DNA from: Candidatus Pacearchaeota archaeon
GTDB taxonomy: Archaea; Nanobdellota; Nanobdellia; UBA10117; JAFCGA01
Direction of reading: 5' to 3'
DNA length: 64,000 nt
NCBI GenBank assembly: GCA_017608345.1
Contig: JAFCGA010000002.1
Coordinates: 79,023-143,022 of the forward strand
This document shows positions 3,588-22,429 of the stretch, one piece after another. Both the position numbers and the translations under genes were made by a program. The notes under the pieces were generated by a model. The model did not search any database. It was not told where the DNA came from and was given only the letters and a program-made list of their open reading frames with translations. Each line of letters begins with the position of its first letter. Position 1 is the stretch's first letter.

Positions 3588-3620
3588 GATAGATTCAAAG
3601 ATCTGAATAGCATAATATAA
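3588..3620. repeat. 3'-flank arm of the 23S rRNA processing stem (pairs with 6532-6560)
   Basis: gatagattcaaagatct (3588-3604) is the exact reverse complement of 6544-6560. gcataatataa (3610-3620) is the exact reverse complement of 6532-6542. Confidence 0.8.
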
Positions 3621-3639
3621 TCGAGCTGTTAGTAACTGC

Positions 3640-6525
<2,886 letters not shown>

Positions 6526-6531
6526 CGTGTT

Positions 6532-6560
6532 TTATATTATGCAAGATCTTTGAATCTATC
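6532..6560. repeat. 5'-flank arm of the 23S rRNA processing stem
   Basis: See 3588-3620. Confidence 0.8.
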
Positions 6561-6661
6561 AATTGAATATCAATTATTCAATTACATTGTTCTCGAGCCG
6601 AGAAAATCTCAGTTCGAGTAAACTGTACAAAATCAACGAAGATTCTGAACAGAAAGTAAAG

Positions 6662-6846
6662 TGGACCCGGAGGGATTTTCAAGCTACAAAGTTGCCGAAG
6701 GTATATTCGGAGCGACGAAGTCGCGTAGTAAAATACCTTTTCTTTGGGCTACCTTACACCTTTCTTTTTCTAAAAGAAAGGGGCAGTTTGAACCCCCAGC
6801 CTCCTGCATGCAAAGCAGGCGTTCTACCGGGTTGAACTACAGGCCC
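6662..6846 (-). tRNA. tRNA-Ala(UGC) in the 16S-23S spacer, with an inferred 111-nt insertion (about 6676-6786) in the T-loop
   Basis: The sense strand reads GGGCCTG TA GTTC..GAAC G CCTGC TT TGC AT GCAGG AGGCT GGGGG TTCAAA [111 nt] T CCCTC CGGGTCC A. The acceptor closes with the G3:U70 Ala identity pair. Confidence 0.8.
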
Positions 6847-6964
6847 ATAGTTTTAAGACAGATTGGTCGATTTATAAGGTTTTTCTTTGGGCCACTTATC
6901 GCGAACCGAAGTTCGCGATCTGTTCGTCCGCGTACGCTTGGAATTAGCGTACAAACATGAGTAT

Positions 6965-6981
6965 AAGTAGATGAATAGCTT
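6965..6981. repeat. 3'-flank arm of the 16S processing stem (pairs with 8730-8745)
   Basis: aagtagatgaatagctt versus aagctattcatctact form 16 complementary bp bracketing the 16S gene. Confidence 0.75.
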
Positions 6982-7653
6982 AACCTTCTTTGAGTATTAA
7001 TCAGGATACTTGCAAGCAAGTATCCTGATTTTAAAAGGAGGTGATCCATCTGCAGGTTCCCCTACAGATACCTTGTGTTGACTTCGCCCGCCTCGCTGAA
7101 CCAGGATTCGACTTAACCAAGAAGTTGAGCCTCATCCCAACCCAACTCGGTTGGCGTGACAGGCAGTGTGTGCAAGGGCCAGGGACACATTCACCGCACG
7201 ATGCTAACGCACGATTACTAGGGATTTCGTTTTCACGAGGGTGAGTTGCAACCCTCGATTCGAAAAGATTGAATTTAAGGGATTGGCTTCTCCTTTCGGA
7301 GTTGCAGCCCGTTGTTTCAACCATTGCTTGCCGCGTGTAGCCCAGAGGATTCGAGGCATACTGACCTACCGTAGCCTACACCTTCCTCTCCCTTTCGAGA
7401 GCAGTCCCTTCAGTGTGCTTATTCTCAATGAGAATAGTGGCAACTGAAAGCGTAGGTCTCGCTCGTTGTCTGACTTAACAGAACACCTCACGGCACGAGC
7501 TGACGGCGGCCATGCACCATCTCTCAGCGCGTCGAGTGAGCCATTCAGGCTGACCTTCATTCTGCTGTCGCTTCTGGTAAGGTTCCGGGCGTATAATCCA
7601 ATTGAACCGCAGCACCCACCCCTTGTGGTAGCCCCCCGCCAATTCCTTTAAGT

Positions 7654-7698
7654 ATACTGTAGCTACATTTCTCTAATATTTGTAAGAAAATATAGCAA
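7654..7698 (-). other. 16S insertion 1 (45 nt, putative intron) splitting GGCTGAA | ACTTAAAGGAATTGG
   Basis: The conserved block is contiguous in ordinary archaeal 16S but interrupted here. Boundary is +/-2 nt. Confidence 0.7.
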
Positions 7699-7817
7699 TT
7701 CAGCCTTGCGACCGTACTCCCCAGGTGGCCTGCTTAACGACTTCTCTCCGACACTGCATGCTCACGAAGAACATGCAGCACCTAGCAGGCAGCGTTTACG
7801 GCTAGGACTACGAGGGT

Positions 7818-7882
7818 TATTAGGGCTCTGGAAAATAGTTTTCTTTTTCCAGGGTTTTTCTTTTTAAAAAAAGAAAAAGCCT
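7818..7882 (-). other. 16S insertion 2 (65 nt, putative intron) splitting GGATTAGAT | ACCCTCGTAGTCC
   Basis: The interrupted block is the 785-806 'universal primer' region. The insert folds into two hairpins: TTTTTCTTTTT/AAAAAGAAAAA and CTGGAAAA/TTTTCCAG. Confidence 0.75.
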
Positions 7883-7980
7883 ATCTAATCCTCTTTGATC
7901 CCCTAGCTTTCATCCCTGACCGTCAGACCCGTTCTAGTTAGACGCCTTCGCCGCTGGCGGTCCTCTGGGGATTAAAACAA

Positions 7981-8071
7981 TGTAACTGCACTTTTTCGCT
8001 GCTTTGCAGCAAGTAAAGTAGTTTCTTTTGGGCTACCTTACACCTTTTCTTTCCTAAAGAAAAGGGGCAGT
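7981..8071 (-). other. 16S insertion 3 (about 91 nt, putative intron) splitting GAGCGGTAAAA | TTGTTTTAATCCCCAGAGGACC
   Basis: It interrupts the conserved GGTAAAATCCTGTAATCC-type block and carries a module shared with the tRNA-Ala insertion. Confidence 0.7.
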
Positions 8072-8235
8072 TTTTACCGCTCCCCCCAGAATACCTCTAA
8101 CTCCTCCCGGTCTCAAGCTAAGCAGTATTTTCAGCACGCCTGACAGTTGAGCTGCCAGATTTCACTAAAGACTTACTTAGCCGGCTACGGATGCTTTAGA
8201 CCCAATAAACGTGACCACCACTAAGGGCGCCGGGA

Positions 8236-8266
<31 letters not shown>

Positions 8267-8729
8267 CCCTTTATTCCTGAAGCGTTTTGGACTCCAGAAA
8301 AGCAGACGCAAAAAGCGCCTGCACGTAGGATTCCCCCATCACGCTTGCGCGCATTGTGGAGTATTCAGAACTGCTGCACCCCGTAGGGCTGGGAGCCTTA
8401 TCTCAGTCTCCCTCTCAGGGCTAGGACTCTCATCCCCCTTACAGATCTTAGGTTTGGTGAGCCGTTACCTCACCAACAGCCTAATCTGCCGCCAACTCAT
8501 CCTATGGCGCCGAAGCTTTGGATAAAAGCGCATTCCAGCCTCTTTTATCTATCGGGAATTATCTTCAGTTTCCCGAAGTTATGCCCGACCATAGGGTAGA
8601 TTATTGACGTGTTACTGAGCCTTTCGCCATGATTTCTCATAGACTTGCATGTCTCATGGATCCTACTAGCAGTGGTCTCCCGCAGGATAAACGGGAATTG
8701 TGATCGCATTAAAATAGAATTGGCTATTA

Positions 8730-10498: not shown

Positions 10499-10641
10499 TG
10501 CAGGGGACAGGGTTCGAACCTGCGTAGGCACTAAGCCACTGGGTCCTAAACCCAGCCCGTTCAATCGCAACCAACGCTAAGCTATCTTCTTTCCGCCAGC
10601 GCTTTCTTAAAGGGCTGCTTTGACCACTCCGGCACCCCTGC
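10499..10641 (-). tRNA. tRNA-Leu(UAG) with an inferred 57-nt insertion (about 10561-10617) in the D-loop
   Basis: GCAGGGG TG CCG GAGTGGTCAAAG [57 nt] A CGG G CTGGG TT TAG GA CCCAG, followed by a long variable arm, GCAGG TTCGAAC CCTGT CCCCTGC A. Confidence 0.75.
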
Positions 10642-18341: not shown

Positions 18342-18539
18342 ATGCCCTACTCAAAAAACTCTGAATTACCTGCTGCAGTAAAAGATAATCTTCCAGCAAG
18401 AGCACAGACAATCTTTAGAAAAACCTTCAACTCAGCTCATGAGCAGTATAAAGAAGAAGTTCGAGCTTTCAAAGTTGCTTGGGCTGCAGTTAAGAAAGTT
18501 TATATGAAAAATGCTCAAGGTAAGTGGGTTAAGATCTAA
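18342..18539 (+). CDS. ChaB family protein
   Basis: MPYSKNSELPAAVKDNLPARAQTIFRKTFNSA...AFKVAWAAVKK closely follows the ChaB pattern. Confidence 0.7.
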   Translation: MPYSKNSELPAAVKDNLPARAQTIFRKTFNSAHEQYKEEVRAFKVAWAAVKKVYMKNAQGKWVKI

Positions 18540-19102
18540 GTCAGAGAAAGAACTGCTTCTGGATCAACATCGATTCGATCAAAAATATGTTTCTCAATCG
18601 CGTAGACTTTTGGTTTTACTAATTCAAAAAAAGTCATACTTCGCGGGGAGAGACTCCCGTACCGTTTATTAAAGTACTCGAATCGTTCTTCTACTGTGAC
18701 GATTTGATCATTATTTACTCTTTGATCTGCATATAAAGTTATCAGCTCTTCCCAACTCCAAGTGCGGAAATCTTTTTCTTTAAATAGATAAGTTAGAATA
18801 TGTTTGCGAGCGCTTTCACCGATTTCAGGATAACCTTCCTTAGTTAAAGTAGTATATCCAAGCTCTCCATGTCCACTACCGTGTAGCGTTACTCTTATCT
18901 CCTCGGGCTTTCCGATATCGTGGAGCATTGCTATCCTGCTAGCTAGATCTAAATTAACTTCTTCGCCCGCAGCTATTAATTTCTTAGCTAAGAAAACTAC
19001 AATCTTTTCAACCACGAGACTGTGTTTAGTTATGTGTGCAAATTCTTGACCCATGTATTTGTCTAATAATCGCAGACATTCGTCTCGCGTCGGAATTATC
19101 AT
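18536..19102 (-). CDS. HD domain phosphohydrolase
   Basis: H...HDIGK motif. I moved the start to MIIPTRDE (19102) to avoid overlapping top6A. Confidence 0.7.
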   Translation of the reverse strand: MIIPTRDECLRLLDKYMGQEFAHITKHSLVVEKIVVFLAKKLIAAGEEVNLDLASRIAMLHDIGKPEEIRVTLHGSGHGELGYTTLTKEGYPEIGESARKHILTYLFKEKDFRTWSWEELITLYADQRVNNDQIVTVEERFEYFNKRYGSLSPRSMTFFELVKPKVYAIEKHIFDRIDVDPEAVLSLT

Positions 19103-19139
19103 AACGCGCTGTCTAAAGAATATTTTATAAGAGTATTGA

Positions 19140-20249
19140 TTAAACAATAAAGTCTTTATTATCAATAATTGTAGGCAAATAAACCTTAGACGTGAAATCA
19201 ATTGATTTGCTGACCAAAGAATCTGATTCAACTTTATATTTGAAATCTTTCAAAGCTTTTAGCTCAGCCTGCCAAGCCTTATTCTTAAACCAATCATAGT
19301 TCTGGATCTCTTTGATTCTCTTGTAATCAAGATCATTCATCTCAATCCAATTTGTTTTAGGAATATCAAATCGCTTTATATCTTTAGTTTTCAATCCAAT
19401 GTATTTAGCGTCTGGGCAGCCTGCTTTTTCAGAGAAGAAAGCTAGGTTAATTGAGCCTTGCTTGTAAACAGAATAGATGTAATACCCGTAAGCATCCATA
19501 TCTGTGAAGATATAAACTGGAATCTTTAGTTCCTTGCTAATCCTCGCCAGTAATCTCCTTGCAGAACGGGAAGCCTGACCTTTTCCAGTCATAAGCAAGC
19601 AATTATTTTTCTTCCAGTACCGCTCCTGATTTAATAGATTCCAAACCGCGAACTTCTCAACTACGAGAATATAATCTGCGCTGCACTCTTTAAAATTAAC
19701 TACATGATTTTCAGTATTCGGAGGAATAGCCGCTCCGGCAGAGCCTAATTTAGCGCAATTAATAATATCATTAGTTTTCATGTCTTCATATACTAGTGGC
19801 CCAGCTATAACTCCGTCCGGCGTTGCTTCTAATCCGAGTTGTTCTCTAAGGACATCAATCGTAACTTCAACATCTTCAATTACTGGGTCTGTTTCAGTCT
19901 TCTGATCGTCAAAAGTATTTTCTTTTGAGCCTTCTATTGTGTGTTTTAGAATATAGTAGAGCTGTCTAGTTGAGATTGCAGGTTTGTTCTGTTCAAGGAG
20001 CTGTTTAATTCCTGCCGCAACTAAGGAAGTCTGCATGAATTTCTTAGCTTGACCTACGTTGAAAAATGTACGCGTCTGAGTTTTATCACCTAGTTTAATC
20101 AGCCGATCTTTCTCATCAAAGTAAGCATTGCTTAATGTTCTAAGTGGCATAGTCATGCTTGGATTTTTCAGCGCTTCAATAGCTCCATTCATGTCTACAC
20201 CCAAGTTCTTTAATCGTTGAATTATAATATCTCTAGTTAGCTCAGTCAT
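19140..20249 (-). CDS. top6A: DNA topoisomerase VI subunit A (Spo11 family)
   Basis: Winged-helix plus Toprim arrangement (..LVVEKFAVWNLL.., ..IFTDMDAYGYYI..). Confidence 0.9.
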   Translation of the reverse strand: MTELTRDIIIQRLKNLGVDMNGAIEALKNPSMTMPLRTLSNAYFDEKDRLIKLGDKTQTRTFFNVGQAKKFMQTSLVAAGIKQLLEQNKPAISTRQLYYILKHTIEGSKENTFDDQKTETDPVIEDVEVTIDVLREQLGLEATPDGVIAGPLVYEDMKTNDIINCAKLGSAGAAIPPNTENHVVNFKECSADYILVVEKFAVWNLLNQERYWKKNNCLLMTGKGQASRSARRLLARISKELKIPVYIFTDMDAYGYYIYSVYKQGSINLAFFSEKAGCPDAKYIGLKTKDIKRFDIPKTNWIEMNDLDYKRIKEIQNYDWFKNKAWQAELKALKDFKYKVESDSLVSKSIDFTSKVYLPTIIDNKDFIV

Positions 20250-20631
20250 TTTCTTCTCCCTCTACCCAAGCAAATTCAGGTAGCTCTGCTTCTGGCCAGC
20301 CACATTGAAAAGCTAATTCTCTATTATCAAAGGCCGTGATATATGAATCATTTGCGCCAAGATGCTCTCTGATTTGGGCGATAAGCATTGAGCAGTTCCC
20401 ATCTGCGTGCCAATTCTTACAATAAGGGGTTCCGCAAGCCATAGGATGAAGCTTCCCATTTTTTAAAACAATACAGTCGATAGTGGTATCTTGCAAGACG
20501 CTCCGCATGGCGTATTTAGATACTCTAAGCTGGAAGCAGTAGTCTGCATCTTCTGGTTTTCCACCAAAATGCCCTTTTCTTTTATCTAGGATTCTACTTA
20601 AATCTTCTGAGGGAACAATTAACGGTCGCAT
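20242..20631 (-). CDS. Hypothetical 129-aa Cys/His-rich protein between top6B and top6A
   Basis: Start taken at MRPLIV, 7 nt after the top6B stop. The stop overlaps the top6A start (ATGACTGA). Motif HPMACGTPYCKNWHADGNC. Confidence 0.55.
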   Translation of the reverse strand: MRPLIVPSEDLSRILDKRKGHFGGKPEDADYCFQLRVSKYAMRSVLQDTTIDCIVLKNGKLHPMACGTPYCKNWHADGNCSMLIAQIREHLGANDSYITAFDNRELAFQCGWPEAELPEFAWVEGEEND

Positions 20632-20638
20632 TAATAGT

Positions 20639-22429
20639 TTATTCTTCATCCTCTTTAAACTCCGCTTTTTCTTCTTTCCTTTCAGCCTCAAGTTCTTTTT
20701 CTTCAGCTATTTCTTCAGCACCTTCTTTTTCTTCTTTATCGATCTTCTTCTCAGCTTTTTCCAATTTCTTTAATTCTTCAGCTTCTTCTTTTTCTGTCTC
20801 AGCTTCTTCAACTTTAGATAATTCAATTTCGCTCATATACATTGACTCAGCGATTTTTAATAATTGTTCGTGTATCTTCTTAGCTTTCTTTTCTAAATCC
20901 TCAGTTGATAGTTTGAAAGATTCGTCAGTAATTAAATTTGCTACAGATCTAGCAACTTCTCCAGAGTAAGCTTTAAATTTCTCCCGTTTCTTTGCTTCAA
21001 TCTCTGCTCTCTGTCTTCGAGCGACATATCTATACAGACTCCGACCGCATTCTTGTAAAGCTAATTTAGTTTCTTTAATAATTTCAGGATAATTTGCAAT
21101 AGCTTCCTTTCCCTCTGATGTGAATGGAACCCAAACTGAGGCCATGTGGACGAGAACTATCGCTGCGCCAGTTGGCATATTCCCACTGCTTTGACTTAAT
21201 CCGTAGGATTTCCAGCTCATCTTTTTGATAGCTTTTGTTATTGCGCAGGCTCCTTCTTGGTATAGCAGAGGAACTTTATTTGCAAACCTAACCATTTTAA
21301 CTGATCCTTCGGGATCCAAATCTCCGCCATATCCAATTGCAATTTCTATTTGAAAGGGATTTCCGCGATAAACAGATGGCGAACGGGTGATAGCATATGA
21401 GAAATCAATGCTGTATTCGGAATCTAGACTTTTCTTAAGCAATTCCGAGCCAATTGGAGATAAGCAGTCCATTGATGGCTTCATTATCTTTGCTTCTTGC
21501 ATGCCCTTAAGTAACCGCTCGATTTGTTCAGGTTTCAGTAATTTAGGTAAGAACTTCCCGTTGATTTGTGCGTCAACATCTAAAGTATTATTCGCGATCT
21601 TAATAATGTCATTCGCGGAAGTTGAACCTATCTTATCGAATTCTTTCATTAAAAATGACTTTACTGACCGCGCTTTTGTACCATCTATCATCCGTTTAAG
21701 AATTCCTAGCTCAACTCCGTATGGATGTGGTTTTATTTGTTTCGACGGTTTAGGAAGTTTATCTGTAACTCTTGGAAATTCTAGCTTTTCTCCACTCGGA
21801 GCAACATAAACTATTTTAGCGTGCGGGTTAACAATCGCCGTGGCTTTGATATATTCGATAACTGATTGACGATGTTCAATATATTTAGCTTGCATATCCA
21901 CCTCGACTTTAATTCCATGCTCTCTGTCCCATTCGATCCCTGTTGATTCAATTATGTCCGGTTCATTCTTCTTGACGTCGATATGCAGAATATATAATCT
22001 GGCTTTATCATCGTCCTTTGTTTTGGAGATTATTTTAGCTGGCTTTCCAGTAGTTAATTGACCGTACAGAATTACTGCAGAAATCCCAATACCTTGCTGT
22101 CCTCTACCTTGTTTTCCGCCAATGGATTGGAATTTAGAACCGTAAAGTAATTTACCAAATGATTTTGTAAGATGCTTTTTACTGATTCCCGGGCCATTGT
22201 CTTCGACGATCATCTTGAATTTATCCTCGCCGAGATCTATGAGTGATATTTTGATTTCAGGGAGAACTTTAGCAGCCTCGCAAGCGTCTAATGAATTATC
22301 AACTGCTTCTTTTACAGAGGTTAGAAGTGCTTTAGTTGGATTATCAAATCCTAAAAGATGGCGATTCCTCTCGAAAAACTCAGCAATAGAGACAGCCTTA
22401 TGTGTTTCCTTGCTTTTAGAATCAGTCAT
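20639..22429 (-). CDS. top6B: DNA topoisomerase VI subunit B (GHKL ATPase) with an E/K-rich C-terminal tail
   Basis: Bergerat fold motifs EAVDNSLDA and DNGPGI..GSKF..GGKQGRGQQGIG. Confidence 0.9.
   Translation of the reverse strand: MTDSKSKETHKAVSIAEFFERNRHLLGFDNPTKALLTSVKEAVDNSLDACEAAKVLPEIKISLIDLGEDKFKMIVEDNGPGISKKHLTKSFGKLLYGSKFQSIGGKQGRGQQGIGISAVILYGQLTTGKPAKIISKTKDDDKARLYILHIDVKKNEPDIIESTGIEWDREHGIKVEVDMQAKYIEHRQSVIEYIKATAIVNPHAKIVYVAPSGEKLEFPRVTDKLPKPSKQIKPHPYGVELGILKRMIDGTKARSVKSFLMKEFDKIGSTSANDIIKIANNTLDVDAQINGKFLPKLLKPEQIERLLKGMQEAKIMKPSMDCLSPIGSELLKKSLDSEYSIDFSYAITRSPSVYRGNPFQIEIAIGYGGDLDPEGSVKMVRFANKVPLLYQEGACAITKAIKKMSWKSYGLSQSSGNMPTGAAIVLVHMASVWVPFTSEGKEAIANYPEIIKETKLALQECGRSLYRYVARRQRAEIEAKKREKFKAYSGEVARSVANLITDESFKLSTEDLEKKAKKIHEQLLKIAESMYMSEIELSKVEEAETEKEEAEELKKLEKAEKKIDKEEKEGAEEIAEEKELEAERKEEKAEFKEDEE

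Follow-up and report, generated by a model that had tools for sequence, protein, structure and literature searches.

In phage T4, the free-standing homing endonuclease gene mobA lies between the topoisomerase genes 39 and 60, and T-even phage endonuclease genes more generally are found between conserved genes. Among cellular enzymes, DNA gyrase of E. coli is inhibited by the zinc (Zn)-finger protein YacG (PMC2490753, PMC4083091), and topoisomerase VI (Topo VI) of plants has the accessory proteins RHL1 and BIN4 (PMC9665070, PMC11302465), which occur strictly together with the enzyme throughout eukaryotes and, it is reported, are found in neither archaea nor bacteria (PMC11302465). Here we examine orfX, a small cysteine-rich open reading frame (ORF) that separates the genes for the B and A subunits of Topo VI (top6B and top6A) in a 64,000-nucleotide stretch of contig JAFCGA010000002.1 from a Candidatus Pacearchaeota archaeon, hereafter the window. 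An initial sequence-only reading of this DNA had taken the position of the ORF as the mark of a candidate Topo VI subunit or regulator. We find a genuine gene under purifying selection that is shared with a single close relative and occupies a junction into which unrelated small genes have also been inserted.

orfX is a genuine gene within the top6 operon

As judged from the ORF list and the raw sequence, orfX is a middle cistron on the minus strand, with top6B upstream and top6A downstream (Table 1). The top6B stop codon TAA occupies positions 20641-20639, and the orfX TGA (20244-20242) sits within ATGACTGA, which carries the ATG of top6A (20249); taken from the ATG at 20649, the ORF overlaps the end of top6B by 11 nucleotides (nt) and the start of top6A by 8 nt. 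The initial description of an ORF wedged between the two subunit genes, from an ATG at 20631 that lies 7 nt after the top6B stop to a TGA inside the top6A start, is confirmed in its quoted start and stop positions by the sequence and in its surroundings by profile matches of the flanking genes. The sequence is likewise consistent with the proposed co-transcription, and translational coupling is plausible because orfX overlaps both of its neighbors.

Across 5.8 billion protein clusters we found a sole relative, P0002, a protein of 135 amino acids with 66% protein and 75% nucleotide identity to orfX. It is encoded on a 1,689-bp contig (L001), where it lies between the end of top6B and the start of top6A with the same gene order and the same overlaps. 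In a codon comparison of the two genes the proportion of nonsynonymous differences (pN) is 0.17 (0.14-0.22) and that of synonymous differences (pS) 0.55 (0.42-0.67), corresponding to a ratio of nonsynonymous to synonymous substitution rates (dN/dS) of ~0.2 at a synonymous divergence (dS) of ~1; constraint is strongest over the central 45 codons (pN 0.10), and the G+C content of orfX is native-like. Because it has a syntenic homolog in the same frame and with the same overlaps, and because pN falls below pS, orfX is a real protein-coding gene under purifying selection and not a chance ORF, and on this point the initial call is borne out.

Searches with orfX, P0002, a two-sequence profile and the isolated core gave no significant match in Pfam, NCBIfam, PHROGs, PADLOC or the PDB sequences, and the two-sequence profile added no new member. 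Beyond P0002, an HMMER scan run without filters over 1.84 billion representatives yielded only P0003-P0005, which we set aside as artifacts: these are giant or tandem-repeat immunoglobulin-like surface proteins whose scores sum many near-identical weak repeat matches, and a single repeat aligned to orfX gives 16 of 43 identities, non-significant at database scale. Scans of the JGI metagenomes and IMG/VR yielded no further copy, tblastn against phage and plasmid collections found none, and the window itself contains no paralog. We also rejected the idea that orfX is a split-off C-terminal domain of Top6B: phmmer against the PDB sequences, which presumably include the M. mazei Top6B structure, came back empty, and the Top6B tails of 69 loci, which are low-complexity charged segments, hold no orfX-like sequence. 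The orfX family is thus an undescribed one with two known members, and an orphan inserted into an operon is in itself an already known kind of phenomenon.

Distribution of orfX across top6B-top6A loci

To place the junction in a wider context, we searched GTDB species genomes and JGI metagenomes with a Top6A probe and obtained 160 loci, 140 of which contain both genes in the order top6B then top6A. The two genes overlap or abut in 62 of the 140, typically at ATGA, and are separated by at most 130 nt in 63 others, so that 125 loci are accounted for by overlapping, abutting or closely spaced genes; in a further 11 (~8 of them distinct) more than 250 nt lie between top6B and top6A, and 4 were mis-detected by the script. 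Among these ~140 loci orfX occurs in two, the window included, with tblastn detecting it only in L001 besides the window; six loci of the sister clade, with Top6A proteins 73-76% identical, and ~130 further ones are all without it.

In a neighbor-joining tree of Top6A the window and L001 form one clade. Its sister clade comprises L003, L004/L085, L082 and L083, all without an insert, as well as L002/L084, whose insert is a different one; the records nearest to the window organism, a DPANN archaeon, are labeled Woesearchaeota or Pacearchaeota. In L083 the uninterrupted junction is GAGGATGAAGAATAATGCC, one base of which belongs to both the stop and the start codon. The parsimonious reading of the tree is hence that orfX entered an ancestrally overlapping junction once, on the branch of the window and L001. 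The extents of Top6A and Top6B are equal in orfX-bearing and orfX-free relatives, so that orfX replaces no lost domain. It is important to note that, as a general claim, the proposed status as a Topo VI subunit does not survive this comparison, in which only one close relative has the gene: the synteny survey in relatives largely finds neither the ORF nor its position to be conserved, and by these sequence comparisons orfX is not a conserved third Topo VI subunit.

Three further possibilities at these loci were considered and put aside. An apparent Top6B-Top6A fusion in L134, L136 and L149 was rejected, the genes simply abutting. The insert was also inspected for a target-site duplication and for terminal repeats, and the only candidate is a purine-rich similarity between GAGGATGAAGAA and GAGGGAGAAGAA, which arises from Shine-Dalgarno and acidic-tail composition. 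The lower synonymous divergence of orfX, as a sign of recent transfer, proved marginal and not decisive.

The closest Top6A relatives outside DPANN, at 43-50% identity, are bacterial, mostly from Phycisphaerae/Planctomycetota with some Myxococcota and Elusimicrobiota (many loci within L015-L081 and L097-L161); they agree with transfer from archaea to bacteria near DPANN, for which there is published evidence (PMC11302465). As for the other subunit, residues ~500-596 of the window's Top6B (20639-20950, minus strand) form a long tail of low complexity, rich in Glu and Lys, whose DNA contains short direct repeats; similar tails are shared by the sister lineages, and planctomycete Top6B proteins have long charged, disordered-looking tails in place of a folded C-terminal domain.

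Unrelated genes at the top6B-top6A junction

The different insert of L002/L084, from a sister Woesearchaeota lineage whose Top6A is 74% identical to that of the window, is a 97-amino acid ORF, here orfY (L002:472-765, plus strand; identical in L084:2706-2996). Its ATG overlaps the TGA of top6B, its stop overlaps the start of top6A by 11 nt, and its last codons contain a GGAGGA for top6A, the architecture being the same as that of orfX. The two are nonetheless unrelated, with no BLASTP alignment at E<=100; orfY has a hydrophobic segment at its N-terminus and stands alone, as a singleton, among the 5.8 billion clusters.

The Planctomycetota junctions hold a further series of inserts, including recognizable toxin-antitoxin families (Table 1). 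At locus L039 (3399-3881), top6B is separated from top6A by a 481-nt GC-rich spacer that has no recognizable gene, only a short repeat of tandem-like character that translates as ARARTVARA. In a test of whether orfX is itself a type II toxin-antitoxin system, it proved to be a single ORF without a Pfam or PADLOC match, whereas the bacterial inserts do match such families. Together, these loci demonstrate that the top6B/top6A boundary is a recurrent insertion site for small genes, accessory or selfish and unrelated to one another, which have arrived there in several independent events: two different DPANN orphans and several Planctomycetota toxin-antitoxin modules. Since the junction holds unrelated genes elsewhere, a position wedged between the two subunit genes is no specific evidence of a Topo VI function, nor in itself evidence of partnership.

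Start codon, ribosome-binding sites and the acidic tail

The start of orfX is probably the in-frame ATG at 20649, 18 nt upstream of the one at 20631, which would give a protein of 135 residues. P0002 begins MKNKKIIRAL, and the window has an equal in-frame MKNK start at 20649, preceded by a GGAG site whose L001 counterpart, AAGGAGGA, lies 9 nt upstream of the start; the conservation of the MKNK start and the suitable spacing of GGAG are the grounds on which we prefer the 135-residue model. The methionine at 20631 aligns with an isoleucine of P0002, and no Shine-Dalgarno sequence is suitably spaced from its ATG, the GAGGA there lying 18 nt upstream. The 3' end of the 16S rRNA in the window reads ...GATCACCTCCT, ending ...CACCUCCU.

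At the other end of the gene, the last codons (GTA GAG GGA GAA GAA AAT GAC TGA) encode the Shine-Dalgarno sequence of top6A, GAGGGAG, and L001 has GGAGGAG at the equivalent position. The acidic C-terminus remarked on earlier, EFAWVEGEEND, is present as quoted but is not a conserved feature, the final VEGEEND reading VEEKKNE in P0002, and it is better explained by the top6A ribosome-binding site that is encoded there.

Cysteine content and a putative metal site

Cysteine makes up 4.4% of the residues of orfX against 0.75% in the long ORFs of the window, a ~6-fold enrichment, in a protein of ~15 kDa computed to be mildly acidic (isoelectric point ~5.5). Residue numbers are those of the 129-residue form. 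Between orfX and P0002, and thus over two sequences, five of the six cysteines (C32, C53, C66, C71 and C80) and H62 are invariant, whereas H75 is replaced by glutamine and C110 by tryptophan in P0002, leaving H62 as the only conserved histidine. The spacing is C-x20-C-x12-C-x4-C-x8-C, and the conserved cluster could bind a metal. Of the compact metal site of the sequence-only reading, the motif itself and the conservation of the cysteine cluster hold up, but not the histidine at position 75. Two further resemblances noted in the sequence were dropped: a ribbon-helix-helix-like N-terminus has no profile support, and the same is true of a CCCH-like C-x12-C-x4-C-x3-H pattern, the histidine of which is not conserved.

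What orfX may do

In light of these comparisons, we put at about even the chance that orfX is an operon passenger, an accessory gene retained for some function particular to its lineage and not integral to Topo VI catalysis. The insertion, a single event, would have occurred at an overlapping top6B/top6A junction in an ancestor shared by the window organism and one related DPANN lineage of Woesearchaeota/Pacearchaeota-like type. Its protein would be made from the Topo VI mRNA, coupled to translation of top6B, and ribosomes ending on orfX, together with the embedded Shine-Dalgarno sequence, would feed the translation of top6A. The product is predicted to be soluble, with the five conserved cysteines and one histidine putatively holding a structural metal, most likely Zn.

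Several observations weigh against this proposal. Embedding in the operon and overlap with both subunit genes are also what would be expected of a stoichiometric partner, and purifying selection at dS ~1 implies a host-level function for which Topo VI is the only contextual clue. The bacterial inserts are recognizable selfish two-gene modules, whereas orfX is single and carries no toxin or antitoxin signature, which makes the analogy loose. As for the metal, it is proposed from cysteine conservation alone, in a protein without a CxxC knuckle, and two AlphaFold2 runs, with predicted local distance difference test (pLDDT) scores of 40.7 and 36.9, are unreliable. Both models place a helix, a strand, a hairpin, two helices and a strand in the same order, at low confidence; a Foldseek search of the first against the PDB gave nothing below E=1, the best hit, at E=1.2, being meaningless.

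The best surviving alternative is that orfX encodes a lineage-specific modulator or third subunit of Topo VI, a cysteine-rich (Zn) protein made in fixed proportion that would bind the enzyme or DNA and tune its activity in the manner of YacG. It draws on the place of orfX as the middle cistron overlapping both neighbors, on the retention of the junction position in the one homolog, on purifying selection maintained over a divergence with dS ~1, and on the precedent of small Zn-finger regulators of type II topoisomerases such as YacG (PMC2490753, PMC4083091). We nevertheless regard it as rather unlikely: orfX is missing from all other Topo VI-bearing relatives examined, the six sister-clade loci among them; orfX-free relatives lack no Top6A or Top6B domain that it could replace; clearly unrelated genes occupy the same junction elsewhere; and no homology connects it to YacG, RHL1, BIN4 or any known partner. 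In its fullest form, with orfX as the first accessory factor of an archaeal Topo VI, a clade-restricted ~15-kDa metal-binder that would bind Top6A2B2 or DNA and modulate decatenation or relaxation in a genome-reduced DPANN lineage, the idea is in our view unlikely. Should orfX indeed act on Topo VI, the archaeal enzyme would have its first accessory factor, one offering a simple handle on type IIB topoisomerases and on Spo11-like regulation.

Improbable, in turn, is a mobile origin, in which orfX would be what remains, or a domesticated form, of a free-standing homing endonuclease of the His-Me finger or His-Cys-box-like kind, or of some other mobile ORF directed at the conserved junction. Insertion exactly at the boundary of two highly conserved genes and sporadic presence among close relatives would fit such an origin, and the H-x3-C-x4-C-x3-H...N pattern resembles the His-Cys box of I-PpoI, but the second histidine (H75) is a glutamine in the homolog, and no HNH, His-Cys, GIY-YIG, LAGLIDADG or PD-(D/E)XK profile matches even at E<=10, with the isolated core included. 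The lower pS of orfX (0.55 vs. 0.71 in the top6A flank; permutation p=0.025) could point to a separate arrival, yet top6A sub-windows vary over a range (0.57-0.84) that takes in this gap, and dS ~1 with dN/dS ~0.2 speaks for long vertical descent under selection and not for recent homing. Furthermore, no copy was found in another context, a phage, a plasmid or a viral contig, and the insert has no terminal repeats or target duplication beyond the purine-rich similarity.

Finally, the notion that orfX is a translated spacer, in which only the act of translating the insert would matter through ribosome coupling to top6A and the peptide would be functionless, would suit the way in which orfX and orfY each span their insert end to end, overlap both neighbors and carry the top6A Shine-Dalgarno sequence, but is made very improbable by amino acid constraint (dN/dS ~0.2, central 45 codons at pN 0.10 and five of six cysteines invariant).

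Other features of the window

The window further contains an archaeal rRNA operon (3609-8698, minus strand), in which the 16S match, at 1,663 nt, is longer than the 1,478-position model and so suggests an insertion or intron, and the 16S-23S spacer holds a 94-nt tRNA-Ala(TGC) (6754-6847). A 143-nt tRNA detected with Rfam at 10499-10641 (minus strand), with no ARAGORN call, is probably intron-containing. Directly downstream of top6A, an ORF with an HD-type motif (LHDIGK; 18536-19231, minus strand) may share the top6A transcription unit; as listed, from a TTG, it has 92 nt in common with the end of top6A, and the real start is probably further downstream.

Table 1. Features of the top6B-orfX-top6A locus in the window and inserts at Planctomycetota top6B-top6A junctions
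Feature	Location	Strand	Remarks
top6B, DNA topoisomerase VI subunit B, 596 aa (amino acids)	20639..22429	minus	NCBIfam PRK04184 E=1.8e-201; Pfam Topo-VIb_trans and HATPase_c
top6A, DNA topoisomerase VI subunit A, 369 aa	19140..20249	minus	NCBIfam PRK04342 E=6.8e-151; Pfam TOP6A-Spo11_Toprim and TP6A_N
orfX, preferred (probable) model, 135 aa (MKNKLLMRPL...)	20242..20649	minus	ATG 20649 to TGA 20244-20242; start conserved in P0002
orfX, limits of the sequence-only reading, 129 aa	20242..20631	minus	From second in-frame ATG
GGAG, Shine-Dalgarno-like site of orfX	20660..20663	minus	10 nt before orfX ATG 20649
GAGGGAG, Shine-Dalgarno site of top6A	20256..20262	minus	6 nt before top6A ATG
Conserved Cys cluster C32, C53, H62, C66, C71, C80	20392..20538	minus	Putative metal site
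Motif H62-C80 of the sequence-only reading	20392-20448	minus	HPMACGTPYCKNWHADGNC
HicB and HicA	L037 (3506-3936), L110, L113		Planctomycetota junction
Nucleotidyltransferase (NTP_transf_2) and HepT	L071:3271-3950		Planctomycetota junction
PIN and PhdYeFM	L045:3068-3687	minus	Planctomycetota junction; opposite strand
DUF6932 and small ORF	L070 (1616-3829), L122 (2284-2882)		Planctomycetota junction
PDDEXK_3 protein	L070 (1616-3829)		Planctomycetota junction

Comparison with known systems

Like YacG, the orfX product is small and cysteine-rich and could in principle, by analogy, regulate a type II topoisomerase by binding. The likeness ends there: orfX has no sequence similarity to YacG and no match to its profile (Pfam/NCBIfam, E<=1); YacG is built on a C4 finger of CxxC-type knuckles, whereas orfX is without CxxC and twice as long; and the YacG gene does not lie inside a gyrase operon, whereas orfX lies inside the top6 operon. 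The analogy to RHL1 and BIN4 drawn in the earlier reading, as extra small proteins associated with Topo VI, is countered by the absence of orfX from almost all Topo VI-bearing relatives and by a lack of homology to their beta-rich core (1.84 billion representatives and Pfam).

With mobA, orfX has in common that it is a small Cys/His ORF exactly between topoisomerase subunit genes and sporadic among relatives; it differs in having no family signature and no conserved second histidine, and in a divergence that fits vertical inheritance. As for the genes found at the same junction, orfX matches none of their families and consists of one gene rather than a toxin-antitoxin pair; yet the Planctomycetota modules and orfY resemble it in both their insertion point, which is the same, and their lineage-specific distribution. 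Set among these systems, orfX documents a young orphan under purifying selection that appears to have become responsible for translational coupling within an essential operon.

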